From Eledone cirrhosa (Eukaryota): a DNA stretch of 64,000 nucleotides. The stretch covers positions 31,744,001 through 31,808,000 of the forward strand of contig OZ024750.1 of assembly GCA_964016885.1 (NCBI GenBank), written 5' to 3'. Under the pieces are notes generated by a model. That model was not told the origin of the DNA, ran no database searches, and worked only from the letters and a program-made list of their open reading frames with translations. Made by a program: the position numbers and the translations under genes. Positions 19,516 through 64,000 of the stretch are shown here, piece by piece; within the stretch, counting starts at the first letter, position 1, and every line of letters begins with the position of its first letter.

Positions 19516-20562
19516 GGAGAGATGAGCCCTTAGCCTTTGTCAATACAGAATTCTAGGAGAATGAAAACTCTGATATAACACCTGCAACCCTGATGATATC
19601 CAATGATGTTGACTTGTTCTTCTTTTTGGTAAATATCATCTTGGTTAAGAGAGTGGGACTGGCTTTGTGCAGTGCCTTTGCTCACTATAAAAGCTTCACG
19701 GCAGAAGCATTGCTTTATATCTGGAGATCTCTCTGCACTCGTTGTCACATGGTACCATGAGCCCAGCACTATGTGTCAATAATTGTCACAAGTGTAGTGT
19801 TTGTTCCAGAGTTTTCAAGTCGCTGGCTGGACTAAAAAGTCACACTCGTTCAGTGCATTGGTAGGGGTTCTCCTACATGGATATAAAGTAGTGGCCGTAC
19901 TCGAAAACGATTTAGCAGCCACCATATATGTATGTATGTATATATATATATATGTATGTATATATGTATATATGTATATATGTAACATGTATCCCAGTAC
20001 AACTTGTCCTATGATCGGGTCGTTGGCGACTAAACTGGCAACCCTACCAAGGTTTCTTAGTGAGGAGGGTGACTTTGGACATCCTGCAGGACTAAAAACA
20101 AAACCTGTCAAAGGGCAATGAGCTCTTAAGAGTCAATGGCCATCCAAAATCACCGGGCGATATGACCCCTTAGCCTTTGTCAAGGCAGAATTCTCGGAGA
20201 AGGAAAATTCTGATATAACACCTGCAACCCTGATGGTATCCAATGAGGTTGACTTGTTCTTCTTTTTGGTAACTATCATCTTGGTTAATAGAGTGGAGAT
20301 CTCTCTGCACTTGTCGTCACATGGTATCATGGGCCCAGCACTATATGTCAATAATTGTCACAAGTGTAGTGTTTGTACCAGAGTTTTCAAGTCGCTGGCT
20401 GCACTAAAAAGTCACACTCGTTCAGCGCATCGGTAGGGCTTCTCCTACATGGATATAAGCATGGATATAAAGTAGTGGCCGTACTCGAAAACAATTTGGC
20501 AGCCACCATATATGTATGTATATATATATATATATGTATGTATGTATGTATATATATATATG

Positions 20563-20621
<59 letters not shown>

Positions 20622-20724
20622 TTATATATATATATGTATGTTTATATATATATGTATGTTTATATATATATATATGTATGTATATATATATATATATGTA
20701 TGTATCTATATATATGTATGTATG

Positions 20725-20755
<31 letters not shown>

Positions 20756-21457
20756 ATGTATGTATATATGTGTGTATGTATGTATGTATGTATGTATGTA
20801 TGTATGTATGTATGTATGTATGTATGTATGTATGTATGTATGTATGTATATATGTATGTATGTTGGTGCTACTGGTAACATGTATCCCAGTACAACCTGT
20901 CTCATAGTCGGGTCGTTGGCGACTAAACTGGCAACCCCACTAAGGTTTCTTGGTGAGGAGGGTGACTTTGGACATCCTGCAGGACTAAAAACAAAACCTG
21001 TCAAAGGGCAAAGGAGCTCTTAAGAGTCAATGGCCATCCAAAATCACTGGGAGAGATGACCCCTTAGCCTTTGTCAAGGCAGAATTCTAGGAGAAGGAAA
21101 ACTCTGATATAACACCTGCAACCCTGATGGTATCCAATGATGTTGACTTGTTCTTCTTTTTGGTAAATATCATCTTGGTTAAGAGAGTGGGACTGGCTTT
21201 GTGCAGTGCCTTTGCTCACTATAAAATCTTCACGGCACAGGCATTGCTTTATATCTGGAGATCTCTCTGCACTTGCCGTCACATGGTACCATGGGCCCAG
21301 CACTATGTGTCAATAATTGTCACAAGTGTAGTGTTTGTACCAGAGTTTTCAAGTCGCTGACTGGACTAAAAAGTCACACTCGTTCAGCGCATCGGTAGGG
21401 GTTCTCCTACATGGATATAAAGTAGTGGCCGTACTCGAAAACGAGTTGGCAGCCACC

Positions 21458-21458
<1 letters not shown>
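19516..21458 (+). mobile_element. three tandem copies of an internally deleted (bipartite) RTE-type element separated by microsatellites (19516-19924, 19982-20508, 20862-21458)
   Basis: RTE-like 5' motif CTAGGAGAAGGAAAACTCTGAT joined to a C-terminal C2H2 remnant ([22 protein letters not shown]) and 3' end GTAGTGGCCGTACTCGAAAACGAGTTGGCAGCCACCA(TA)n; no RT. Confidence 0.65.
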
Positions 21459-21488
<30 letters not shown>

Positions 21489-21644
21489 CGTGAGAGAGAG
21501 TGTGTGTATATATATTTGTGTGTGTGTGTGTGTGTGTGTATGTGTGTATGCGTGTATATATATGTATATATGTGTGTATATATGCGTATATATGTTTGTA
21601 TATATATGTGTATATTTATGTATATGTCTGTGTTTGTATGTGTA

Positions 21645-21689
<45 letters not shown>

Positions 21690-21788
21690 GCATGTGTATG
21701 TGTGTGTGTGTGTGTATATATGTGTATATGTGAGTGTGTGTATATATGTGTGTGTATATGTATGTATATGTATATGTGTGTATGTATA

Positions 21789-21833
<45 letters not shown>

Positions 21834-22031: not shown

Positions 22032-22038
<7 letters not shown>

Positions 22039-22374
22039 TTAATATAGATGAAATTCTACAGGACTAGAACTGTTTCATTCTTTAGAAATCATCAGGAATC
22101 TAATTCTACAAAGCTATAGTTTATTTTTATTATTATTATTAATTTATGTTTTTAGAGTAACAAAGGCAGACAGAATTCTATAAACAGGTTCCGGATGGCA
22201 TACCATTCCTTGTCATTAAGTTTCTCTTAAGCTAACAGATGTCTATAAGATGATTTCTAAAGAATGAAACAGTTCTAGTCCTGTAGAATCTCATCTATAT
22301 TAAAACTTTTATACTCTGCTATGTTTTGAGTACCTTACTTACTGTGGTTACCTCCGATTCAACCCGGAATAACG

Positions 22375-22859: not shown

Positions 22860-23322
22860 ATGAATTTAGCTTTTAAAGAATCTCCCTTTCCTTCAATTCT
22901 ATCTACCATGACTGACCCCCACTGATCTTATAGACATCTGTTAGCTTAAGAGAAACTTAATGACAAGGAATGGTATGCCATCCGGAACCTGTTTATAGAA
23001 TTCTGTCTACCTTTGTTACTCTAAAAACATAAATTAATAATAATAATAAAAATAAACTATAGCTTCGTAGAATTAGCTTTTAATGAATTCCCTTTTCTAT
23101 CAACCAATGACCTACACCCATCCCACTCCCCACCCTCTCCTACCACTTGTAGAGACCTATAAATACCATATTTATTTTTTGATACCCAGATTCCTGATGA
23201 TTTCTAAAGAATGAAACAGTTCTAGTCCTGTAGAATCTCATCTATATTAAAACTTTTATACTCTGCATTTTATTGAGTACCTTACTTACTGTGGTTTCCT
23301 CCGATTCAACCCGGAATAACGT
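22860..23322 (+). mobile_element. PLE 3' module, family A
   Basis: 22927-23075 is the reverse complement of 22100-22250; ends CAACCCGGAATAACG(TA)n like 22375. Confidence 0.75.
23188..23238 (+). ncRNA. type I hammerhead ribozyme (family A), predicted cleavage after GUA at 23232
   Basis: Stem I AGATTC/GAATCT, core CTGATGA, stem II TTC-TAAA-GAA, GAAA, stem III ACAG/CTGT, GUA triplet. Confidence 0.85.
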
Positions 23323-23342
23323 ATATATATATATATATATAT

Positions 23343-23536
23343 ATAGGAACCAGTAAGACCCCGACAGCTGAGCTCAAGCCGTTTCGACGGCTAATTCTGA
23401 GTCCAGAATTAGCCGTCGAAACGGCTTGAGCTCAGCTGTCGGGGTCTTACTGGTTCCTATTACCCACTCTACTACCACAAGTATTGAGTACTTTGGTGCG
23501 TTATGGTCCACCTGGTTCCTTACCACATTTCCTTCG

Positions 23537-42255: not shown

Positions 42256-44002
42256 ACACGTGCATATCCTCACACCCACTCCGCCTCCGTATTACGCAGG
42301 CTCTCCTCCACCCCATCAGACCCCTTTTCATCTACACACACACACACTTACACTCCACCGCAACGTACACAATTGTTTTCCAAAACCCAAAAGCACGCAG
42401 CGCCGCTCTCCCCCAGACGCTCGCATTTACACCCACGCATACACACACACACTTACACCTACACACACACCTCACCTTCCGACCTCCCCCGCTCGGACCC
42501 TTTTTTCCTTCCTCTTCTCTCTCCCCTTCATCCTATATTTCCCCCTCCCACCCTCCTCCATCCACCCCTCACACCACCACACCTACACGCCTCTCTCTCT
42601 ATATATATACTTATGTTTTTATCGTGGCTAAACGAAATGCAAATACCATGTTATCACTATACGAAATAATTGTTTCTACTTTTGGCACAAGGCCAGCAAT
42701 AATCCAGTACATTACTGGTACTTTATTTTATCGAACCCGTAAGGATGAAAGGCAATGTAAACAATATATTTGAAAACTATTCGTGCAGAATTGCTATATT
42801 TATCGTAAAATAATTTCGACATTAACTTTGGGTTTTATTTGGTGGGAAGTTGTGGGTATCCTATTATTGCTAATCGTTATGATGATATTTCTTTTGAGTG
42901 TAGATAACGATAGATTTTCAGCTGTTTCGCTAGACTACGTGTGGCTCTCCGATGTGAAATCTTGCTCAATATATCTATCTAGATTGTAAGGAAAGAAAGA
43001 AGGAAGCCTTAGATTTTTGCTCCTTAGAGAAACATTTAGTACTGAAATATCGTGCAGGTGGGTATAGATTGATATGTAATGTCGCAATTGAAATTCCCCG
43101 GAAATTTGATGAGTTGATACTTGAAGTTACATCGCAAAGATATTCCTACGAGTGAAATTGGGTACGAGTGAAAATGTATACACACGAGGAATGGCGATAG
43201 ATAAAATACAAAAATTCAAGATTGTGCCCTCACATATTATCTGTGGATAATGGGTAAAACTGTATGCGTAATATTCAATAACGTATAAATAAAATGAAGT
43301 TATATTAGGAGGGCCGAGAGGTAAGTTCGTAGGCCGACCAAGATACTCTCATGGAACGACCAAATGAGGTTTACTTTTCAACACAATCCCTAGAAAGCAA
43401 TGCTACATTTAGTATTGAATGATTTCTAGTATAGGCACAAGACCAATATTTTGGGGTTAGGGGAATGTTGATTAAATCGACCCCAGTGCATTACTGGTGC
43501 TTTATTTTATGACTTAGATATAATAACATTAAGATATATTTCTTTATTAGCCACAAGGGCGCAAAAGAAAAGGGGACAAAACAAAGACACATGCCGGGGA
43601 TTTTACATACAATCGTGTAAAAATATGAAACAAACAAATATAACAATCGAAATCGGGGGGAGGCACCACAAATGGGTTGTTTAATAACATGTAGATAGAA
43701 CAACACTCAACTTCAGGGGCGTGTTGTGCACGTGCTTCTTTATTCCTTTTGCACTCTTCGTCAACCTACAGGTTTATATACAGAGAAGGCCCAATCACTC
43801 GGGCCCTTTTTGCCACATTCACCCACCTTTCAGTAAATATACTGGGGCGCAGTACCTCTCTCTCCACTCTGATTCTCCTTCTAAAGTGGTACCTAAAGAA
43901 GGGAATGAGTTGAGATAGCAGTTTTATCAGATTATATTTTGAGTCTTTATGACCATATGAAATGAAGAATAAGATACCAGGATTTCTATTACGTATATAA
44001 CA

Positions 44003-44173
44003 TTTGGCAGTATCAGTAGAGCGTCAGACACCGTGTTTTGCAGATTAGAGTTATGGCCCTTTATGTTCTGAGTTCAAATCCCGCCGAGGTTACTTTGTAC
44101 GGGTTGATGACATAAAGCACAAGTAATGCACCAAGGTAATTGCTGGTCTTGTGCGAAAAGAAGAAACAATTAT
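44003..44173 (+). mobile_element. tRNA-derived SINE copy (core partly deleted)
   Basis: A/B boxes and tail. Confidence 0.75.
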
Positions 44174-44213
44174 TAAAAATACAAATCGGCGTCTCAAATA
44201 AAAATTCGGACGG

Positions 44214-44250
<37 letters not shown>

Positions 44251-44801
44251 AAATCCTTATATTTTAAGTTTAGTTACTACTAAGTTGTTTTATTATCCCG
44301 TTCCTTAATTTATTATGGTAGGCTATTGTCAGAGGACCTTTAGTTCAAAGACTGGAACACTGAGTATCTGAGAGATATTATATATATATATTACATATAT
44401 ATTATATATATATTATATATATATATTATATATATATATATATTATATATATATATTTTATTCCTTCTACCACTTTATCATTTTTGTTGAGCTGACTCCA
44501 ACAATAACACCACCACCAACACAAGAATAGAGGTCAGATGTACCTAACAATAACAAGAACAACAACTACAGATTGGCTTGCCTCAGAACGAATTTCTATA
44601 GACTTTTGACTGAGGAATGTTCTAACAACTGACCAATGAGAGGAGAAGAGGCCCTTTGACGCTGAAATTCGTTTGTTTGAATGCATATGATTCCAGTTCC
44701 TCAGTGAAATAATAACCCAACCAGGAACTGGGCATATCAGAGTATTGACAAAGTTATACACCTCAACAACATGTGTACACGTCTCTACCACACTAATTCG
44801 G

Positions 44802-44856
44802 ACTGCCTGAAGAGGTTACAGCCAAATATGGCTGTCACCGAAATATATATAGCAGT
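44802..44856 (+). ncRNA. type I hammerhead ribozyme (family G) in a PLE-like module at about 44495-45000
   Basis: Stem I ACTGC/GCAGT, CTGAAGA, stem II GGTTACAGCCA(AATA)TGGCTGTCACC, GAAA, palindromic TATATA, AUA triplet. Confidence 0.8.
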
Positions 44857-44999
44857 AATAAATGAAGCCAAATTTTAAACATTTGACTTATTTATTTTAT
44901 TTTATTTTACATTACTCCGGAGTAACCAAACCAACCTGCGCACTTCGTCGAGTACTCCAATCTGCATACTGAGGTGTTGGTATACAACCAACATATACT

Positions 45000-45158
<159 letters not shown>

Positions 45159-45331
45159 ATATATATTATATTATATATATATATATATTATATTATATAT
45201 ATATATATATATTATATTATATATATATATTATATATATTATATTATATATATATATTATATTATATATATGTATATATATATATATTATATTATATATA
45301 TATATTATATTATATATTATATATATATATA

Positions 45332-45523
45332 AGGGCGGTGAATTGGCAGTATCGGTAGAGGGTTGGACGCCATGCTTTGGCGCATAGAGTTACGGCCCTT
45401 GCCATTCTGAGTTCAAATCCCGCCGAGGTTAACTTTGCCTTTCATCCTTATGGGGTCGATAAAATAAAGTACCAGTAATGTACTGGATAATTGCTGGCCT
45501 TGTGCCAAAAGTAGAAACAATTA
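45332..45523 (+). mobile_element. full-length tRNA-derived SINE copy
   Basis: GGGCGGTGAATTGGCAGTATCGGTAG..GAGTTCAAATCC..tail. Confidence 0.9.
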
Positions 45524-46930
45524 TATATTATATATATGTATATATATATATATTATATTATATATATATTATATAATATATATATATATAAATATATATA
45601 TATTGTGTGTGTGCATGTGTCTGTCTGTGTGAGTGTGTGTATACACATATATGTATCGTAATAGATAGTACTGATCAAGTGTATTTGTTGATAGTAATTA
45701 TATATATGTCTTTTCTAGGGATATCTCATAAGCCATATGCCCCGTGTTTTATTACATAATTGAACAATAATGAAATATTAATTATATCGTATTATATTAT
45801 ATTCAATAATTTTTGAGATGGAGGAACCAGATTTAATTAATTCTGTGTTCATATACGATATTTATAAAAGGGAAATATATTGATCTAGCGCCATTCTTTT
45901 AGCTTATTATACTAGAGGATTTCTGAAATCTACGTTGATACTGTACGATTTTTGAAGTAATGTTGACAATAAAATTCTTCTATTAAGTTAATTGCTTTCA
46001 AAATCTTAATAACCATATTGGAATACTAGTTTAGATTAAAGTATATATATTGCTTATGTTTGCCTGAATGATTTCACATCCTTTTAAATATATTCCTTCG
46101 TGATTTAATGATATTTTGTAATAGGTGTCCTTTAAGAATCAATTGCGGTAATTATTTCAAATTATGTTCTAGATTAAGCAGGAAAATACGAATGTGGTAG
46201 ATTCAGATTTAGATTCACATTGATTAGTATTTGGTACTAAATCATATGCATGGAAGCAGAGCCAAGTAGATAACATTTGAGGAAAATATTTATCGAATTA
46301 TGTGGAATAAAATCTAGGATTAAAGAGATGGGTATAGAAGAAATAAACCATTATTTTGGATATCAGGAGGATCATTTCTAAGATTGTGCATTGCATCACA
46401 TGTGTTACTGTTATAATTAATTTAGTAGTTTACAGCGTAATATATTCTGTTCAAGAAATATTAAGTTTATTGCGTACATATCCAAATACATACATACATA
46501 CATACATACATACATACATTCATGCCTACATAAATGTACGCATACATACACACACAGACATACATTCTACATACATACATAAATGCATACATAAATACAT
46601 ACACGTACATACACATGTATGTGTACGTGTGAGTGTGTCATTGCGTCTGAGTATATGTACAAATATAGGCCTGGAGAGGTATAGGCTCCGCCAGGCTTAA
46701 ACTGCCCAGGAAACGTCGTATATCAATACTTCGCCCCTACTACTCTATCAGGAGTTACGAGACAATACATACTTGTGTTCAAATATGGACCATATTTCCT
46801 AATCCACAGTGACATTGAACCGACCTTTATAGTCTCAGTAACAAACCTTGAATCCCGTACCATACGGTCTGGAGTTCTCGACTGCTACAGAGATATATGT
46901 GACGTTCACGGAGAAAAAGAGAGAACAAAA

Positions 46931-46938
46931 TATCTATC

Positions 46939-47004
<66 letters not shown>

Positions 47005-47019
47005 CTATCTATCTATCTA
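46931..47019. repeat. (TCTA)n microsatellite, 5' flank of the LINE array
   Basis: Direct reading. Confidence 0.95.
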
Positions 47020-49728
47020 GGCTGCGTTGTCCGAAGTAAAATACGTGCTCTAGGGAACGAGGGGACCAAATCTGTTAGCTGGGCCCGCGTGACAGAGGCC
47101 AACAGTGGAACTAAATCCACCATCCGGTCTTTGCGAGACCTGGATGGACGGGCGATTCTTGAGCCTAAGCAGATGTGTGAGGCCTTTCAAAGGCACTTTG
47201 CCCGACTGTTCGGGAGGGGCGGGGAGCCGGTTGGGAACGTGGACTTCGGTCCATACCTCGACGGCCTGCCGCGCCTCTCGGACAGGGAGGCGAAGTCCTG
47301 CGAGGAGCCGATTTCAGCCGCTGAGATAGAGGACGTGCTGAGCCAATGCGGCAAACGCAAATCCCCGGGTCTCGATGGTCTTCCTTACGAATTATATCTA
47401 GCTATGCCGGACTTGTTCCCCGATCTCCTCGAGGCGGTCTACTGCAACTGGCAACAGAACGGGAGAATTCCCTGTACTGTGACCAAGGGCGTAGTCACGC
47501 TAGTGAGGAAGGACGAGAACAAGGGGGACGAAATAAGTAACTTCAGGCCCATAACTCTGCTAAATACAGAGTTACAGATTTTGGCCAAGGTGCTAGCAAA
47601 GAGGTTGGCGCTTGTCGTGGGCAACCTGGTGGGAGATGCAGACATGCGCTATCCCGTCCAGGTCCATCCATGACAACCTCCACCTCATGCGATACATCAT
47701 AGAGAGGGTTGGGAACGAACCCGGCTTTGGTGGGGCTCTGATCAACTTGGATCAATCTAAGGCGTTCGATAGGGTCGACCATGGTTACCTGGATGCGGTG
47801 CTAGCGGCGGCAGGATTCGGACCCGTTTTCAGGGGCTGGATCACTGCTATGCACAGAAGCCGCATCTGCTCTAGGGTCAAGGTGAACGGCTACCTCTCGG
47901 AGCCGTTCAAAATCGCGCGGTCCATCCGACAAGGGTGCCCTCTCTCCTCCCTTCTGTATGTGTTGACTCTCGAGCCACTACTGCGGAAGTTGGAGTTGTT
48001 GCAGGGCATCCCTTTGGAACCGGGATTGCGGAAAGCGGTGTCGGCCTACGCCGATGACGTGACAGTAATGGTGTCGACGGCCTCCGAAATCGAGGCGGTC
48101 GGCACCTTACTGGAGGAGTACGAAAAGTTCACAGGGGCTAAGCTGAACCGGGACAAGTCGATCGGTTTGCAACTCGGCACGTGGAGGGGCAGACCGATGC
48201 CCTCCGATGGCGTCGTCGGCTGCTGGACGGAGGGCCCGGTGAAGTTGCTCGGGGTCTGGTGGAGAAAAACTGGGCGGAAGTTACGAACAGGGTGTTTGCA
48301 CTGACCCAGAAGTGGGCCAGTTGCAAACTATCCCTGAAAGGTCGGGCGGAGGTGGCGAACACCTACATAGCGTCCGTCATCTACTACCGCCTGACCGTAG
48401 TGCCCTGCCCAAGGGAAACCCTCACCATGATGGAGCGCGCGCTCTTCCAATTCCTTTGGAAGAGGCGGGCTCCTATGGTGAGGAGATCCATCTGCTGTCA
48501 ACACCCTTCGAAAGGAGGGCTGGGGATGCCGTGGCTAATGATGCGTAAACACGCATTAAGGCTACGGCACCTCTACGTATTCCTCACCGGACAACCGGTG
48601 TGGGCCTCGTTTGTGAGACGAACCTTTCCCAGACTCGTCTCACTCACCGAGCTGCAATCCTGGGTCAAGCAAAGACCGAGAAAACTGGGCGCCTGGCACA
48701 CTGAGTGTGCCCAGGCGCTCACCGCCCTCTGGCAGGCGGATCCGGTTATCAGTGGAGACTCCACCGCAACATTCTATAGAGGGCTGGTACGCAGCAGGTG
48801 CGACGACGCCCTCGGAGAAGCCCTAGACATGGAGGAGGACGAACTGGCCAGCCTGTTCGGTAGGACATTCAGCCCGGGACCTATGGACAACTTCCAGAAG
48901 TCCCTGGCCTGGCAGTGCTACCGAGGAGCTTTACCCGTTCGAGAAAGGCTCTACAGACACGGGCGCCCGGGTAGGGACCCAGCTAAAAAGATCTGTCCCA
49001 GATGCGTGTGCGACGAGGAAACCGTTGCACACGCATTGGTACACTGCTCTGGCGTAGCCGATCTGTGGGGCTATGTCGAACAACTGCTGTCAAGGGTGGG
49101 ACCGATCCGGTTGACCACCGAGTCTATTGTAATTATCAAGCCGCCTCCCCCCTTCAAAGATGAAGCAGAGGCGGTGTTTCTGTGCGTAATAGCCATGGCG
49201 AAAGAGGTTGTATGGTGGACGCATCTGAAAGGACTGAGGTCAGGCACCTTTCTCTCTGGCCAACAACTGGTCCGTTTCTTCCGATATCATTTCGGAAGAA
49301 GGATCAGGATGGAGAGAGAGGTGCTGCACCCCAGTCGTTTTTATGAAAGGTGGGTGAAAGTGGCGAGAATGGCCCGTGTGAATGGGCCTTCTCTTTACAT
49401 GAGCCTGTAGGTGGAAAAGAGGAAGGAACGAGGGAGCACCCCCTCTCTGTGCTCCTGAGGAAAAGGGTTGCACACTTTTTTCGGGGGTGTGTGCGACCCC
49501 CCAAGGCGCCTCCTCTCTATTGAGGATTTTGTTATAAATTTTATTTTTTGTTATATTTTATAACAAAATCCTCTATTGAGGATTTTGTTATAATTCTATT
49601 TTTTGTTATATTTTATTTTATTTTTATATATTGTTATTGCCTCCTCCCCATTGAGGACGCCTTGTTTTGTAAACTCCCCCCATTGTACTTGTCCCACTTT
49701 TGATGCCCTTGTGGCAAATAAAAGAAAC
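47020..49728 (+). mobile_element. 5'-truncated Tx1-clade non-LTR retrotransposon, copy 1 (frameshifts at about 47640 and 48260)
   Basis: KSPGLDG, FRPITLLN, LDQSKAFDRV, QGCPLS, YADD, C-terminal CPRC..H..C; 3' UTR ends AATAAAAGAAAC then (TCTA)n. Confidence 0.92.
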
Positions 49729-49729
49729 A

Positions 49730-49763
<34 letters not shown>

Positions 49764-51212
49764 GTTGTTCGGGGTCTGGTTCGGACCGGACCTCCAGGTG
49801 GAGAAAAACTGGGCGGAGGTTACGAACAGGGTGTTTGCCCTGACCCAGAAGTGGGCCAGTTGCAAACTATCCCTGAAAGGTCGGGCGGAGGTGGCGAACA
49901 CCTACATAGCGTCCGTCATCTACTACCGCCTGACCGTAGTGCCCTGCCCAAGGGAAACCCTCACCAAGATGGAGCGCGCGCTCTTCCAATTCCTTTGGAA
50001 GAGGCGGGCTCCTATGGCGAGGAGATCCATCTGCTGTCAACACCCTTCGAAAGGAGGGCTGGGGATGCCGTGGCTAATGATGCGTAAACACGCATTAAGG
50101 CTACGGCACCTCTACGTATTCCTCACCGGACAACCGGTGTGGGCCTCGTTTGTGAGACGAACCTTTCCCAGACTCGTCTCACTCACCGAGCTGCAATCCT
50201 GGGTCAAGCAAAGACCGAGAAAACTGGGCGCCTGGCACACTGTGTGTGCCCAGGCGCTCACCGCCCTCTGGCAGGCGGATCCGGTTATCAGTGGAGACTC
50301 CACCGCAACATTCTATAGAGGGCTGGTACGCAGCAGGTGCGACGACGCCCTCGGAGAAGCCCTAGACATGGAGGAGGACGAACTGGCCAGCCTGTTCGGT
50401 AGGACATTCAGCCCGGGACCTATGGACAACTTCCAGAAGTCCCTGGCCTGGCAGTGCTACCGAGGGGCTTTACCCGTTCGAGAAAGGCTCTACAGACACG
50501 GGCGCCCGCGTAGGGACCCCGCCAAAAAGATCTGTCCCAGATCCGTGTGCGACGAGGAAACCGTTGCACACGCATTGGTACACTGCTCGGGCGTAGCCGA
50601 TCTGTGGGGCTATGTCGAACAACTGCTGTCAAGGGTGGGACCGATCCGGTTGACCACCGAGTCTATTGTAATGATCAAGCCGCCTCCCCCCTTCAAAGAT
50701 GAAGCAGAGGCGGTGTTTCTGTGCGTAATAGCCATGGCGAAAGAGGTTGTATGGTGGACGCGTCTGAAAGGACTGAGGTCAGGCACCTTTCTCTCTGGCC
50801 AACAACTGGTCCGTTTCTTCCGATATCATTTCGGAAGAAGGATCAGGATGGAGAGAGAGGTGCTGCACCCCAGCCGTTTCTATGAAAGATGGGTGAAAGT
50901 GGCGAGAATGGCCCGTGTGAATGGGCCTTCACTCTACATCAGACTATAGGTGAGGAAGATGAAAGACCAAGGGAGCACCCCTTCTCTGTGCTCCTGAGGA
51001 GAAGGGTTGCACACTTTTTTCGGGGGTGTGTGCGACCCCCCAAGGCGCCTCCTCTCTATTGAGGATTTTGTTATAAATTTTATTTTTTGTTATATCTTAT
51101 TTTATTTTTATATTTTGTTATTGCCTCCTCCTTATTGAGGACGCCTTTTTGTGTAAACTCCCCCCTTTGTACTTGTCCCACTTTTGATGCCCTAGTGGCA
51201 AATAAAAGAAAC
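49764..51212 (+). mobile_element. 5'-truncated Tx1-clade retrotransposon, copy 2 (near-identical to copy 1)
   Basis: ORF 49765-50949 matches the copy 1 C-terminal half; flanked by (TCTA)n at 49731-49763 and 51215-51303. Confidence 0.92.
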
Positions 51213-51213
51213 A

Positions 51214-51296
<83 letters not shown>

Positions 51297-51529
51297 TAAT
51301 CTAGCTGTCGTCTGTTCTACAGTGTGGATGTAATTCACTTCGCGCAGAAGTTTTGTTCAAATTTATTGCGGAAATTTTGTGAGTTCAAATTTAATTTTGA
51401 TACAATTGTGTAGCTTGACCCCCCGTCTGAACTGTCAGGCGGTGGGTCAACTCATCTTTACCCCTCCTAGAGGTGAAAAACCTGTTTTAAAAAATTTTGT
51501 GGCAAAAAAATTTCAATCGTCTAACAGAA

Positions 51530-53415
51530 ATGTTAAACGCAGCGAACGAAAATAGTGGTGGGGGGACAGCGGTAAGAGTTGTAAGCTCGCACGCTTTAGT
51601 CCCCCCTTCCTTCCCAACTAACGTCATAGAGAAGGAAGGAAAAATTAAAATAAAAACAGACGAATCTGCGGAGAAAAAAAATGACAAAAACACAAATCTG
51701 GACATGGATTCCAACAACGAAAAAAAAAAAAAATTTGAAAAATTGCATGACAATACTAATAACACAAACAAAGACACAACAAACACAAAAATAACATTTG
51801 AAAATAACACCATAACAGAAAGCAAAGCAGACGATAAGATTTCATTTGCACAGACAACAAAGAAATCTTTGACTTATATACCGGAAAATATTTCAGATGT
51901 GGCACGAAGAATCACAGACGCCAAACAATACATAAGTGAAGGAGAGAATGGTATTTTATCGGTAAAAATGCCTCAAGAATTCACCAAAGACATTGAAAGC
52001 CGAACGGTCAAGTTCCGCACCATCAACAACAGTACAAAAAAACCTGAACAGCCTTCTCAAGCAGATATCAAAACAGTACTCACAGAAGTACTTAATGAAA
52101 CCACTTTCATAAGAAAAGACAGACTGTATGGAAGCCTAGCAATTATCATGAAGAACGAATCGGCGGCAAAAAAATGTGCTTTGTCACCGATTCGTTCGAA
52201 AAATTTTACCTTTTATCCATCTTATATGGTAAAAGAACTCAACGCATATGGCTGGATGCAATGATGCCAGATGTGGACTACTGCTGGCTCATAGCTGGCT
52301 TCATCGATCCAGTGAATGACAACGTGATTTCGATTGGGAAAACCACAGGCAATGCGTTCAGTGGAACAGGTATAGAGCTGGTAGTGCAAATGAAGCCTGA
52401 ACGCATCACCCAAATACCCGACAGAATCCTATTAGAGGGCCACGGGTATATAAACATTAGCGTGGAGGGGAGAAGGCCGTCCTGCCATATCTGTGCAGGC
52501 AGAGGGCACCTGAAGGCCGCTTGTCCCCAACTCAACAAAAAGAAAACCCTGCTACTAACACCAGCTCCACCACCACCACCACAACAGATAAACAAACAAC
52601 AAAACTCAGTCCCACCCAACCCGTCCCTCAGTAAAACCACACCACCACCACAACACATTACCCCAAAACAAAATACAGGACCACCCAACCTCTCACTCAA
52701 TAAAACAACACAACCACCGCAGACACAACACACAACACAGTCTAACATAGTGACATCCATCTCCCCCACAAAGAAAACCAACACGGAAACATTACCAGCA
52801 AACATACCTCTTCCCTCCAACACTGAAGATAACCCAACGAATTCGGAGGAAGAAACGGAGTCCTTCAGACAGATTAAAAGGAAAAAAAGAAAACATGTGC
52901 AAAACGCACAAGGACAAACAACCCCCACTCAAATCTCAACACAATCCAACAAAACAGAAAACACCCCTCCAGCAACAAACAAAACCAAACCTGCCCCTCC
53001 CCTCTTCGAAACACTCACACCATCCGAAAAAAAGACATTACACTATACTTACATCAACAGAAACAATAATAAATTAAATGAACTCATAATCAATAATCCT
53101 TCGGTACAAACCGAAGGTGTAAACTTTGTTTCTTCAGAAAACTACCCACATTTAAAATTAATAAAGATCCCAATGAACCTCTACCAAAAACTAAAAAAGG
53201 ATTTTAAGGAGGACGTAGGACCACCCTCTGTCAAACCCATAAACCGCGTCCTACTAAAAAGCTTTCCCCCTCCCCTTCCCCTCCCCAACACAACTCCAAA
53301 CACCCCAACCCCACCACACACTGACGACCCCACACCACCACAATACACCCCTTCACCCAACACCCCCGACCCCATGGAAGTCGTGCAACCCGAATCCCAG
53401 GAAGCGGAAAGGTAG
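51530..53415 (+). pseudogene. ORF1 gag-like protein with CCHC zinc knuckle (one frameshift at about 52222)
   Basis: ORFs 51497-52264 and 52174-53415 overlap; CHICAGRGHLKAAC knuckle, Pro/Thr-rich C-terminus, KRKKRK basic patch. Confidence 0.8.
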
Positions 53416-53448
53416 GTCTCTACACCCTCCTTTGGCTCTGCCGCCCAC

Positions 53449-56400
53449 ATGGATGTGTTAAGAGTAGGATGTTTGAATGCACGTGGCCTGGGCTCAACTT
53501 GGAAGCAAGCAAAGCTTCTAAATGACCTCAGGTCATGTAGTATAAATGTAATGGTTATCTGTGAGACTTGAATCAGCGTCGTGCGGCAGCTGGCCCCCAC
53601 CTTCGATGACTTTGAGGTGCATGCATCTCTCTGTCAACCTGGAGGTGGGGGTGGGGTTGTCGTACTGCTGCAAAAACACCTGGGTCTTGCCGTACAGGTT
53701 GTGCACTCGGACCCGGAGGGTCGTTTGTTGGTGCTAGACGTTGGCAGTAGTGAAAGTGCGGCCTTGAGACTGGTCGCCGTCTACTCCCCTTTCGGAGCTG
53801 AACGGCCCGACTTCTTCCAGCGTTTGGAGACTTTTCTGGGAACGTCGCGTTCCCTGCTTCTAGCGGGGGATTGGAATGACATCCTGGATGCACGTTGGGA
53901 CTATGCAGGAGTATGTCCTAATAGAGGGGGGTGTAACAGCCTCAAGGGGGTTACTCGACCGTTTTAACTTGGTCGATAGATATCGACTAGATTTTCCAAC
54001 TGTGCCTACCTGGACTTGGAGAAACCACAGTGGTCAATCTAGATCGTACTTAGATAGATTCTTAGTTAGAAGTAAGGATAGGGACATATTAAGCTGTCCA
54101 GAAATGCGCACGGTTGGCTACACGGATCACAAATTAGTGACCTGCGTGGTCAATCTCGAGAAAACACATAGACAGGGTCCCGGTTACTGGAAACTTAATT
54201 TGTCTTTACCGGCAAAAGAGACTTACAGAAACCGGATTAGCAGATTAGTTAAGGAGAGGTTGATGGGTGCAATCGTCAACAACCGATGGTGGGCATCTCT
54301 CAAAAGAGAGATTAGAACAGAATCAATAAGTTATAGCAAGATGTTAGCTGCCGATAGGAATAGAAACGAGAAAGAATTAACAGGTAAATTAGAAGAGGCA
54401 ATCAAGAGCGAAGATGTGGCCAGAGTGCTGGCATCGAGGACGGCCTTGAACCAGTTTTTCGAAGCAAAGCACGAAGGCTGCGTCATTCGAAGTAAAATAC
54501 GTGCTCTAGGTAATGAGGGGGCCAAAGCCGTTGGATGGGCCCGCGTGACAGAAGCTAAGAGTGGAAATCGATCCACCATCCGGTCGTTGCAAGACGAAGA
54601 TGGACGGGTGATCCGGGAGCCTAAGCAGATGTGCGAGGCCTTTCAAAGGCACTTTGCCCGATTGTTCGGGGGAGGCGAGGGTCCGGGCAGGGGCGTGGAT
54701 TTCGGTCCATACCTCGACGGCCTGCCGCGTCTCTCGAGCGAAGAGGCAGAGTCCTGCGAGGGACCAATCTCGGCTGATGAGATCGGAGATGCGCTGAGCC
54801 AATGCAGCAGACGCAAATCTCCAGGTCTCGATGGTATACCTTACGAACTTTATTTAGCAATGCCGGTCTTCTTCTCCGAACTCCTCGAAGCGGTCTACTG
54901 CAATTGGCAGCAGAACGGGAGAATTCCTTGTTCTGTAGCCAAGGGCGTAGTCACGCTGGTGAGGAAGGACGAGAACAAGGGGGATAGTATAAATAATTTT
55001 CGGCCCATAACCCTGCTAAACACAGAGTTAAAGATTTTGGCCAAGGTGTTAGCAAAGAGGTTGGCGCTTGTCGTGGGTGGCCTGGTGGGAGATGCGCAGA
55101 CATGTGCTATCCCATCCAGGTCCATTCACGATAACCTCCACCTCATGCGATACATCATAGAGAGGGTTGGCAACAAACCCGGCTTCGGTGGGGCCCTGAT
55201 CAACTTGGATCAGTCTAAGGCGTTCGATAGGGTCGACCATGGTTACCTGGATGCGGTGCTAGCGGCGGCTGGGTTCGGTCCTGTTTTCAGAGGCTGGATA
55301 ACTGCCTTACATAGCAACCACATCTGTTCTAGGATCAAGGTGAACGGCTACATTTCGAAGCCGTTCGAAATCACACGATCCATTCGACAGGGGTGCCCTC
55401 TCTCCTCCCTTCTGTACGTATTGACTCTCGAGCCTTTACTGAGGAAGTTGGAGTTGTTGCAGGGTATCCCCCTGGAACCAGGATTGAGCAAAGCGGTGTC
55501 GGCCTACGCCGATGACGTAACAGTAATGGTATCTACCGACTCGGAGATCGAGGCGATCGGTACCTTACTGGAGGAGTACGAAAGGTTGTCAGGAGCGAAA
55601 CTGAACCGGGAAAAATCCATCGGGCTGCAACTCGGAACGTGGAGAGGCAGACCGATGCCTCCTGACGGTGTAGTCGGACACTGGACGGAGGGCCCGGTAA
55701 AGTTGCTTGGGGTCTGGTTTGGACCGGACCTCCAGGTGGAAAAGAACTGGAACGAGGTTACGAACAATGTGTTTGCACTAACCCGGAAATGGGCCAAGTG
55801 TAAGCTGTCCCTAAAAGGCCGGGCGGAGGTGGCGAACATCTACATAGCGTCCGTCACTTACTACCGCCTGACTGTCGTGCCTTGCCCTAAGGAAACACTC
55901 ACCACCATGGAACGCATGCTCTTCCAATTTCTTTGGAAGAAGCGCCCTCCTATGGTGAGAAGATCCATCTGCTGCCAACAACCTTCGAAAGGAGGGCTGG
56001 GGATGCCGTGGTTGATGATGCGTAGGCACGCATTAAGGCTACGGCACCTACAGGTATTCCTCACTAGTCAACCGATGTGGGCTCCGTTCGTGAAACGAGC
56101 CTTTCCGAGACTCTTCTCGCTCACCGAGCTACAGTCCTGGGTCAAGCAAAGATCCGGAAAACTGGGAGACTGGCACACTGAGTGTGCTCAGACGCTCAGG
56201 GCTCTCTGGCAAGCGGGCCAGGCCATCGGTGGAGAATCCACCTCATCATTATATAGAGGGCTGGTGGCTAGCAGGGGCGATGACACCCTTGGAGAGTCGC
56301 TGGACATGGAAGAAGACGAACTGGCCAGCCTGTTCGGTAGGACTTTCGGCCCAGGACCAATGGAAAACTTCCAGAAGTCACTGGCCTGGCAGTGCTACCG

Positions 56401-56887
56401 GGGGGCTCTACCCGTTCGAGAGAGGCTCTACAGACACGGGCGCCCGGGCAGGGATCCCTCAAAAAAGATTTGCCCTAGATGCGTGCGTCACGAAGAAACC
56501 GTTGCGCACGCATTGGTGCAATGTCCGGGCGTGGCTGATCTGTGGGGCTACGCCGAACGACTGCTGTCGCGGGTGGCGCCGATTCAATTGACCGCCGAGT
56601 CCGTGATGACAATCAAACCGCCTCCCCTCTTCACAAAGGAAGCAAAGGCGGTTTTTCTGTGCGTAATAGCCATGTTGAAAGAGGTTGTTTGGTGGACACG
56701 ATTGAAAGGTCTGAGGTCAGGCAACTTCCTCTCTGGCCATAGTCTGGTCTACTTCTTCCGATATCACTTCGGAAGAAGGATAAGAATGGAGAGAGAGGTG
56801 CTTGGCCACAGGCAGTTTTATGAAAGGTGGGTGATAGTGGCGAGAATGGCTCGTGTAAATGGGCCTTCTCTGTATACCATCCTGTAG
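53449..56887 (+). pseudogene. ORF2: APE endonuclease, reverse transcriptase and C-terminal zinc motif (TGA at 53569, frameshift at about 53945)
   Basis: MDVLRVGCLNARGL, ICET, VAVYSP, LAGDWN, SYLDRF, TDH (APE); YADD RT; CPRCVRHEETVAHALVQC. Confidence 0.9.
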
Positions 56888-57125
56888 GTAAAGAAGTAAA
56901 GGAGAAGGGAGCACCTTCTCTATGTGCTCCCCGGGCAAAGGATTGCACACTTTTTCGGGGGTGTGTGCAACCCCCATCACGTCCCCTCCCTTTTGAGGTT
57001 ATTTTCGATTATTTTCATGTTACACCCTTTTTACTCGATTATGTAAACTCCCCCTTTGTATTTGTCCCTTCTTTTTATGCCTTTATGGTAAATAAAGAAA
57101 TCTATCTATCTATCTATCATAACGT

Positions 57126-57545
57126 TTTAATATAGAAGAGATTCTACAGGACTAGAACTGTTTCGTTCGTGAGAAATCATCAGGGAGCTGACTGTCCAAG
57201 TAAATATGGTGGTATTTATATCATTTCTGGTGGTAGGAGAGGGTGGGAATTGGGATGGGTGTAGGTCATTGATTGAAAGAAAAGGGAATTCTTTAAAAGC
57301 TAATTCTTTAAAGCTATAATTTATATTTAGAGTGACAAAGGCAGAAAGAATTCTATAAACAAGTTCAAATTGGAGTGCCACTCCTTATTTCTAAGTTTCT
57401 CTTAAGCTAACAATCCCTATATTTAAGGTGTCTACAAGATGGGTGGAGGTCATTGGTTGATGGGTTTAAAGAAAGGGGGTTTCTTTAAACCCATCAACCA
57501 ATGAGCTCCACCCATCCCAATCCCCACCCTCTCCTACAACCAGCT
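57126..57545 (-). mobile_element. PLE module, family A, with hammerhead at about 57138-57189
   Basis: Minus strand CTGATGA-TTTCTCACGAAC-GAAA-CAGTTCTAGTCCTG-TA-GAATCTC; local inversion at about 57438-57515. Confidence 0.7.
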
Positions 57546-57729
57546 TTTAAATAATTCCCCTTACACAAAATACCACAAATACGTATCATATTGGAAATAC
57601 CCGAGGCAAACTGGTTGCTATAGCGATTTCAAGCATATCTAACTTAATAGCAACACCTGTATATATGCATATATACACATATAAAAGCATGCATACAAAC
57701 AAATATACACACACATGCATTTATATATG

Positions 57730-57834
<105 letters not shown>

Positions 57835-58411
57835 GTTAAGTAATTATATAAATATATTGTTTAGACAATTTGGTGAGGCATTGGGAACCCGTAGTTGGAA
57901 ATATTCAAGATACAATTAGATCTAGACGATTGTTTAACGTCTAAAGATGTTGTGCCTCCAGCCGTGAAGAAGATATTAGAGCTAATTTCGACTGATGGAA
58001 TTCTGTTTACAGAGCAGTCTAGATTAAGTAGTTCCCGGGCAAGTGTCTCAACAACAGTCTAGTGCGCATTGTTGCACATTCAGAATGGACATTGTAAAAA
58101 CTAATACATTACTGGTGCATTAACTGTGTTCTCTTTACATGCTATTATGTACTGCAAATATATCTTGATATTTTAGATAACACTGTATGTAATACCAAGA
58201 CATCTTTATAACTAGTATGTAACATAACCATTTTGTCTTAATATACAATATCACCATGGACAGAAAATGGAGCATAAGTCGGACTATTTTCCGTCTTGTT
58301 TTAAGGTTTCATCAAGAACTGTATGTCCTCTTACGTTAGACATAGAAGCATAGCGTACAGACCTCGATTATGAATGACTATCATGCAAATCAGTATCTCT
58401 GACTTAATGGT

Positions 58412-62824: not shown

Positions 62825-63103
62825 GAGAGAGACCAATATTCACCACCACGTAGTGAAATATAATAGTAGTTGAATAAATCGAGTAAAGTAGTCCTGATGA
62901 CGGCAAAGGATGGATGAAGAAGCAATCGCACAATGAAAGCAAGTATCTCTCGTATCCCTGTTGTGCACTATATATACAGATAATTTTCAGTTAATTTATA
63001 TCTATCCATAACCAATATTTTCCTGATTTGCTCTGTGGCTTGAGTTACAAATGATCTCCAGATATTCGAATTTCATGTTGTATTGAATTATAATCATAAT
63101 AAA

Positions 63104-63815
63104 ATTGTTTCGACTTTTGGCACAAGGCCAGCAATTACCCCAGTGCATTACTGGTACTTTATTTCATCGACCCCGTAAGGATGAAAGGTAAAGTTAACCT
63201 TGGCGGGATTTGAACTCAGAATGGCTAGGGCCGTAACTCTATGCGTCAAAGCATGGCGTCCGACCCTCTACCGATACTGCCAATCCACCGCCTTTTATAA
63301 TCATTATTATGTTCAAATCCCGCCGAGGTTGACTTTGCCTTTCATCCTTACGGGGTCGATAAAATATAGTACCAGTAATGCACTGGGTATTTGCTGGCCT
63401 TGTGCCTAAATTAGAAACAATTATTATTGTGAATTGGCAGTATCGGTAGAGGGTTGGACGTCATGCTTTCTAGCATAGTTACGTCCCTTTATGGTCTGAG
63501 TTCAAATCCCGTCGAGGTTAACTTTGCCTTTTATCCTTATGAGGTCGATAAAATAAAGTACCAGTAATACACTGGGTAATTGCTGGCCTTGTTCCAAAAG
63601 TAGAAACAATTATTATTATAATCATAGGGCGATGGATTGGCAGTATCGGTAGAGGGTCGGACACCATGCTTTCCAGCATAGTTACGTCCCTTTTCGATGT
63701 GAGTTCAAATCCCGCCGAGGTTGACTTTGCCTTTCATCCTTACGGGGTCGATAAAATAAAGTACCAGTAATGTACTGAGTATTTGCTGGCCTTGTGCCTA
63801 AAGTAGAAACAATTA
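63104..63815. mobile_element. cluster of four SINE copies: one minus (63104-63293) then three plus (63310-63425, 63428-63612, 63626-63815)
   Basis: Consensus matches in both orientations. Confidence 0.88.
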
Positions 63816-64000
63816 TTATTATAATCATAATATAATAAAGGGAGGAGTGCGGGACTGTGTCCTGAATATATTTTTTTATCCCGTTAGTAAAATAATTTGA
63901 ATTACTTTGTATAAATAATGAATGAATATTACATAATTTATCTACTAAATTTCGTAGCTGTTGATTAAACATAAATATTCGTACATATAATTGTTTCTAC

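Follow-up and report, generated by a model that had tools for sequence, protein, structure and literature searches.

Retrotransposons of the Tx1 family that lack long terminal repeats (non-LTR) are known to insert into microsatellites, and (TC)n, (TTC)n, (TTCC)n and (TTTC)n are the targets given for them in print (PMC4494074; PMC3812793). Kibi and Koshi of teleosts are long interspersed nuclear elements (LINEs) with an apurinic/apyrimidinic endonuclease (APE) that prefer microsatellites with a TC-containing, pyrimidine-rich repeat on the sense strand, and tetranucleotide targets are already represented in the group by the crocodilian elements Tx1-1_Crp, Tx1-5_Crp, Tx1-6_Crp, Tx1-1_Gav and Tx1-2/3/5/8_AMi (PMC4494074). 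We analysed 64 kb of the genome of the octopod Eledone cirrhosa (assembly GCA_964016885.1, contig OZ024750.1, positions 31,744,001 to 31,808,000, forward strand; this whole stretch is the window below, and positions count from its first letter), in which three LINE copies of one family are stacked in a (TCTA)n microsatellite. The Eledone element is like Kibi and Koshi in its APE, its apparent microsatellite preference and its TC-containing sense repeat. Whereas the targets of Kibi, Koshi and the crocodilian elements are pure pyrimidine, that of the Eledone element is TCTA, which contains a purine, and the host is an octopod; it is set apart by its target, not by sequence comparison. Its junctions are TCTA and not (TTC)n, (TTCC)n or (TTTC)n, and for the Kibi target (TC)n, none of the seven (GA/TC)6+ runs in the window holds a family copy. 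The mechanism appears to be an already known one, working as in Kibi and Koshi, and the target may be new. We consider it fairly probable that one octopod LINE lineage, likely of the Tx1 clade, inserted here serially through a preference for TCTA-phase sequence.

Likeness to other described elements is partial. Tx1L of Xenopus also combines an APE with a reverse transcriptase (RT), and its endonuclease is sequence-selective, nicking 5' of AGTT (PMC1950540). Tx1L, however, targets the DNA transposon Tx1D and no microsatellite, and its APE hairpin loop, at 11 residues, is longer than the 9-residue loop of copy 3 of the Eledone family. Waldo (ACAY), Mino (AC), Dong (TAA) and Togen (TG) are likewise non-LTR elements found in microsatellites (PMC3812793, PMC4640811), but they represent other lineages with other repeats, Waldo and Mino being R1-clade elements according to a cited title, Togen NeSL-related and Dong R4-type. 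LINEs of the RTE, CR1 and L2 types resemble the Eledone element in lacking poly(A) and ending in a short 3' repeat that possibly pairs with the target (PMC6007223; for the octopus element RTE-2_OV, PMC9115989), but they belong to other clades, and their signature, as these sources describe it, does not include a 5' repeat.

The three stacked copies share one orientation and occupy 47020-49729 (copy 1), 49764-51213 (copy 2) and 51304-57100 (copy 3), all on the forward strand, in agreement with a first-pass annotation of this DNA that had described three co-oriented LINE copies. Four TCTA arrays of 22.5, 8.5, 20.8 and about 4.5 units, from left to right, bound the copies. The left array (46931..47019) has two interruptions and is preceded by no family 3' end; copies 1 and 2 are separated by 8.5 units (49730..49763), copies 2 and 3 by about 21 units followed by a TTAA unit and then TCTA (51214..51303), and the right array lies at 57101..57118. 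Poly(A) is absent from all stack copies, as had been claimed. Two details of the annotated junctions needed amendment: the sequence TCTATCTA|G had been placed before each copy and does not precede copy 3, where a single variant unit interrupts the repeat, (TCTA)20-TTAA-TCTA|G; and the repeat, said to begin right after AATAAA(A)GAAA, does so only in copy 3, since in copies 1 and 2 GAAA is followed first by a shared CA (GAAA-CA-TATCT). Copies 1 and 2 both have the 3' end AATAAAAGAAACA, and copy 3 ends in AATAAAGAAA. Copy 1 is truncated upstream of the RT and copy 2 after the RT core, and these 5' truncation points, which match copy-3 positions 54476 and 55702, differ as first reported. All six (TCTA/TAGA)3+ runs in the window, 208 bases together, lie at stack junctions. 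The absence of copies from (TA)n and (CA)n tracts also held, no family copy being found within (TA)6+ (6084 bases) or (CA/TG)6+ (658 bases) of the window, even though (TA)n spans 29 times more bases there than (TCTA)3+.

A fourth copy, overlooked in the first-pass annotation, lies outside the stack on the reverse strand (43539..43912). It comprises the last 47 codons of open reading frame (ORF) 2 and the whole 3' untranslated region (UTR), ends in AATAAAGAAA, and is 77-79% identical to the stack copies over about 140 nt (subfamily C). CTATCT stands at its 5' junction (43913..43918, reverse strand) and TATCT 2 nt past its 3' GAAA (43532..43536, reverse strand), as candidate left and right halves of a short target-site duplication, so that in the flanks a single repeat unit seems duplicated over 4-5 nt. 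Gap-free identity between copies 4 and 1 is 10/15 inside and 2/15 outside the CTATCT boundary, and of 15326 background points, 141 have an in-phase 6-mer ending no more than 5 nt away. Copy 4 weakens strict array specificity and supports a short TCTA-phase target word.

TCTA-phase sequence thus stands directly at the 5' junction of all four family copies in the window, as an array in three and as CTATCT in one. At the 3' end, TATCT occurs at the same offset, 2 nt after GAAA, in all four copies, and because of this shared offset TATCT is probably carried on the element RNA. A tail alone, however, does not account for copy 1: the left flank of its array showed no similarity to the three family 3' UTRs (228, 235 and 295 of 300 shuffles scoring as high; blastn likewise), and since this array has no recognisable family 3' end on its left, a tail-only model fails at that junction. 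Tail and target are, as these junctions read, not mutually exclusive. Under a model of random insertion with an element-made tail in a 2.8-Gb genome, with an assumed copy number of 1,000-50,000, triple co-oriented stacks are expected by chance 3e-7 to 0.04 times per genome, and 1e-9 to 1e-4 times when the left array is included. The truncated copies (1, 2 and 4) are all compatible with a top strand severed after TATCT, copies 1 and 2 by way of a 1-nt microhomology (A); such a shared phase would arise by chance roughly once in ten by our own estimate and is a weak indication. The (TCTA/TAGA)n specificity first proposed is therefore retained as a preference within the window (4/4 5' junctions) and given up as a strict requirement for arrays, in which 3/4 copies lie, the remaining one sitting in a single unit. 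From these flanks, a TCTA preference of the lineage seems reasonably probable.

Several points weigh against this preference. The flank evidence comes from four copies in one 64-kb window that was picked for its pattern; Kojima's working criterion for target specificity asks for one sequence type in >20% of flanks genome-wide. The family is multicopy, yet its flanks come solely from this window. For copies 2 and 3, the array on the 5' side is equally explained as the tail of the preceding copy, so that only two 5' junctions, those of copies 1 and 4, are independent of a tail. Copy 4 has no array on either side, and a gapped alignment could shift its 5' boundary about 10 nt upstream. When reads and contigs were mapped to copy 3, TCTA was present at 0 of the 24 loose ends listed (3099 in total, with the 3' junction left out). 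Finally, the 9-residue APE hairpin loop of copy 3, as placed by motif alignment, has the size of that in the promiscuous L1. Loop length is not decisive, because the loop of the site-specific R1Bm is even shorter than that of L1, having two residues fewer (PMC1950540).

The copies were compared with one another to assess their independence. Copies 1 and 2 (subfamily A) are 97.3% identical (1394/1433). Copy 3 (subfamily B) is 82-84% identical to them (2182/2604 with copy 1, 1146/1399 with copy 2) and is thus the diverged subfamily recognised in the first-pass annotation. Relative to copy 2, copy 1 has a 2-nt deletion near 47637 and a 19-nt deletion near 48257, the 19 nt being retained in copy 2. 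Over the 376 C-terminal codons of ORF2 used for the test, copies 1 and 2 differ at 11 of 269 silent sites and 9 of 856 replacement sites, giving a ratio of replacement to silent change (dN/dS) of 0.25 (Fisher p 0.0025), or 0.27 (p 0.012) once the final 8 codons are dropped; the ratio is 0.21 for both copy 1/copy 3 and copy 2/copy 3. As neutral decay after a local duplication predicts a value of about 1, the observed 0.25 makes different active sources likely. On this codon comparison selection acted between the source elements, and copies 1 and 2 likely descend from different ones. Simple tandem duplication of copy 1 or copy 2, which had already been called unlikely, is rejected in view of the silent-biased differences and the 19-nt deletion confined to copy 1. 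Apart from this, the 3' UTR of copy 1 has 55 nt more than that of copy 2 (49515-49590), with a short inverted repeat inside, and 16 of the 39 substitutions between the two copies fall within ~70 nt at the ORF2 stop (49392-49462 vs 50931-51001), a cluster that suggests a mosaic or a fast-evolving patch.

These comparisons bear on two explanations of the stack that need no serial insertion. An origin by local duplication, by recombination of TCTA tails with one another or by misassembly, with no target preference at all, could draw on the high identity of copies 1 and 2 and on the possible mosaic at the ORF2 stop, but it is very improbable given the excess of silent differences, the 19 nt present in copy 2 and missing from copy 1, and the 16-18% divergence of copy 3; recombination between arrays would itself require TCTA at a 5' flank. 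Non-LTR RTs can jump between templates, and a single event in which the RT copied a subfamily-B RNA as far as its 5' end, moved on to the TCTA-ended 3' ends of two subfamily-A RNAs in turn, and left the concatemer in one array would yield co-oriented copies with short spacers. The copies also look young, with few private replacement changes in the 376 codons and with contigs 98-99.7% identical to copy 3, as such an event would have it. Against this, two jumps would be required, one of them mid-template, across two subfamilies, the landing in a TCTA array would still have to be explained, and copy 4 would be left unaccounted for; we therefore regard this course of events as improbable, if slightly less so than duplication.

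A more serious alternative is that the endonuclease is unselective and that insertion is guided by the tail, an RNA with an element-encoded TCTA tail priming efficiently only at nicks with which it can pair, so that copies would lie mostly at short TATCT words genome-wide and arrays would be occasional hot spots or expanded tails. The constant TATCT offset in four 3' ends, the CA common to copies 1 and 2, the position of copy 4 in a single unit and the L1-sized hairpin loop would all be expected, and the microsatellite-like 3' ends of RTE, CR1 and L2 elements have been proposed to steer or prime insertion (PMC6007223). It does not, however, explain the 22-unit array 5' of copy 1, which is no family tail, nor why three of the four copies share one array, and the common phase of the 5' junctions speaks, weakly, in the same direction. 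We give this alternative a minor though real chance, well below that of a target preference.

If serial insertion through TCTA-phase preference is accepted, it would proceed by target-primed reverse transcription. The APE would nick the (TAGA)n strand, and an RNA without poly(A), probably ending in a few read-through TCTA bases, would pair with the freed 3' end. Reverse transcription would begin at this paired end, so that the orientation would be fixed, with TCTA in the sense strand; the top strand would be cut in a single phase, after TATCT, and joined via 0-1 nt of microhomology. A single TATCT unit could be used as a weaker site, as in copy 4. The repeat would remain on both sides of each insertion, and because the target survives intact, later copies could stack in it; a tandem SINEU-3 insertion has been explained similarly, as sequential and target-preferring (PMC4494074). 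The AGAT offered by (TAGA)n resembles the AGTT site of Tx1L, whose loop chimera nicks 5' of AGCT (PMC1950540), a resemblance that we take as a lead only.

Copy 3 is apparently full length; its 5' end was placed from the end of the repeat, and the first bin was covered in 4/4 mapped runs. Its ORF1 (51530..53415, forward strand) has a frameshift near 52227, a CCHC zinc knuckle at 52483 and no Pfam match. Its ORF2 (53449..56887, forward strand) encodes the APE and the RT and, towards its C terminus, a CCHC finger (56471), with Pfam matches to PF00078 (E 9e-27), PF03372 (E 5e-4, below the cut-off) and PF13966 (E 6e-6, 27.2 bits against a cut-off of 27.5). Two lesions disrupt the APE, a stop codon at 53569 and a frameshift near 53946; at these breaks and at that of ORF1, mapped reads and contigs of other copies differ. 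Single-sequence searches of the PDB with APE pieces gave no useful match, and an ESM Atlas search led to generic RT clusters. The copy-3 3' UTR folded no better than its shuffles (z -1.26), and none of the 26 Rfam matches in 43000-58000 reached the gathering score.

An N-terminal APE, an RT and a C-terminal CCHC finger in ORF2, together with a separate ORF1, are features of the L1 group. Profile A2 (14 relatives) matched human L1 ORF2p over positions 3-914 (E 1e-112, 381 bits over 912 positions) and R2 proteins only at about 1e-36; with a Stylophora protein named 'Transposon TX1' it scored 442 bits over 730 positions, a shorter span than with human L1. From domain order and profile matches, the element belongs to the L1 group of APE-type non-LTR retrotransposons. 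Among 129 matches the closest named relatives were those of Argonauta hians (62%), Acanthosepion pharaonis (37%) and the Stylophora 'Transposon TX1' (30%). A midpoint-rooted FastTree of 65 RT regions, thinned from 110 covering the RT and holding no Repbase Tx1 or L1 references, placed the element with the Argonauta and Acanthosepion proteins in a separate long-branched clade (support 0.99). Tx1 membership is the favoured, still tentative assignment. Relatives at ~37-46% identity, nearly all unnamed (proteins P0004-P0081), form clusters of up to 732 members and were found on European Nucleotide Archive (ENA) contigs of up to 1.1 Mb, several with an 11-residue APE loop. A metagenome scan returned 54 loci, none with (TCTA)3+ and two with a 10-nt ATCT run; all are distant (22-53% in the best segment) and therefore uninformative on the target of the Eledone family. 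Viral contigs gave no match to the 3' junction pattern and no relative among 94 candidate stretches.

The distribution of the family was assessed by mapping four of the 20 listed runs (X1, X5, X8 and X18) to 51288-57135, where copy 3 is the only copy and has two repeat units plus a variant one to its left; 57087-57135, with the 3' junction, was left out as repeat. That the family has many copies is seen from run X1, of which 18,487 contig pieces were placed on this stretch. Coverage reached 30, 30 and 27 of 30 bins in three organism labels and 30/30 in a restriction-site-associated DNA (RAD) run, and family words were present in 16/20 listed runs, with no RNA run listed among those holding them. 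The contigs 98-99.7% identical to copy 3 came from X5 and X8, which carry two other organism labels. A further 19 contigs and 252 reads crossed the ends of the stretch and were not interpretable.

L1-Tx1 elements are among the expanded families of coleoids (PMC8967140), and a 2026 repeat library of Octopus vulgaris lists 80 L1-Tx1 families spanning 56.3 Mb, 13 of them recently active (PMC13282606); these probably include the Eledone family or close kin. The word 'target' occurs 0 times in the text and supplement of that annotation, so that it describes no target preference (PMC13282606). No Tx1 element targeting TCTA, TAGA or GATA, and no target of a cephalopod Tx1 element, was found in the literature searched, outside which stand Repbase, Kojima and Fujiwara 2004 and Fig. 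3 and the supplements of PMC4494074, any of which could list one. If the preference holds genome-wide, the short list of Tx1 microsatellite targets would grow by one repeat and one phylum, and octopus (GATA)n markers could be element-linked and multicopy. It is a more tentative proposal, and on balance a doubtful one, that a Tx1-like lineage found throughout octopods has retained TATCT/AGATA as its target word in at least three subfamilies (77-84% identical), inserting also into single units and bringing a repeat on its RNA, so that it both seeds and recolonises (GATA/TCTA)n microsatellites. Were it true, this would be the first purine-containing microsatellite target of a Tx1 element, and the first in molluscs, within the literature searched. 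Should the preference hold genome-wide, young-looking subfamilies shared between species would form a natural series in which to learn whether the site is chosen by the endonuclease or by RNA-DNA pairing, a question that a 2013 review called not well understood (PMC3812793).

Other repeats were noted in the window. The right TCTA array is adjoined by a multicopy repeat (57121-57640), possibly Penelope-like, with an internal inversion and a hairpin at 57438-57516; its relatives lie near 4588-4737, 22035-22250 and 22872-23345. A hammerhead-core-like motif, CTGATGA-N12-GAAA, at 57183-57161 (reverse strand) is kept in 3/3 other copies checked, and its minimum-energy fold gave no hammerhead geometry. 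Copies of this repeat border (TA)n or (TCTA)n tracts, so that it, too, may prefer microsatellites. An abundant dispersed repeat of ~200 nt, at times in tandem pairs, is probably a short interspersed nuclear element (651-1041, 2166-2513, 31411-31601, 45326-45532, 63081-63829 and others). At 2568-3841 and 19516-21813 there are local duplications, several hundred bases long and 82-99% identical, and a 37-nt minisatellite.

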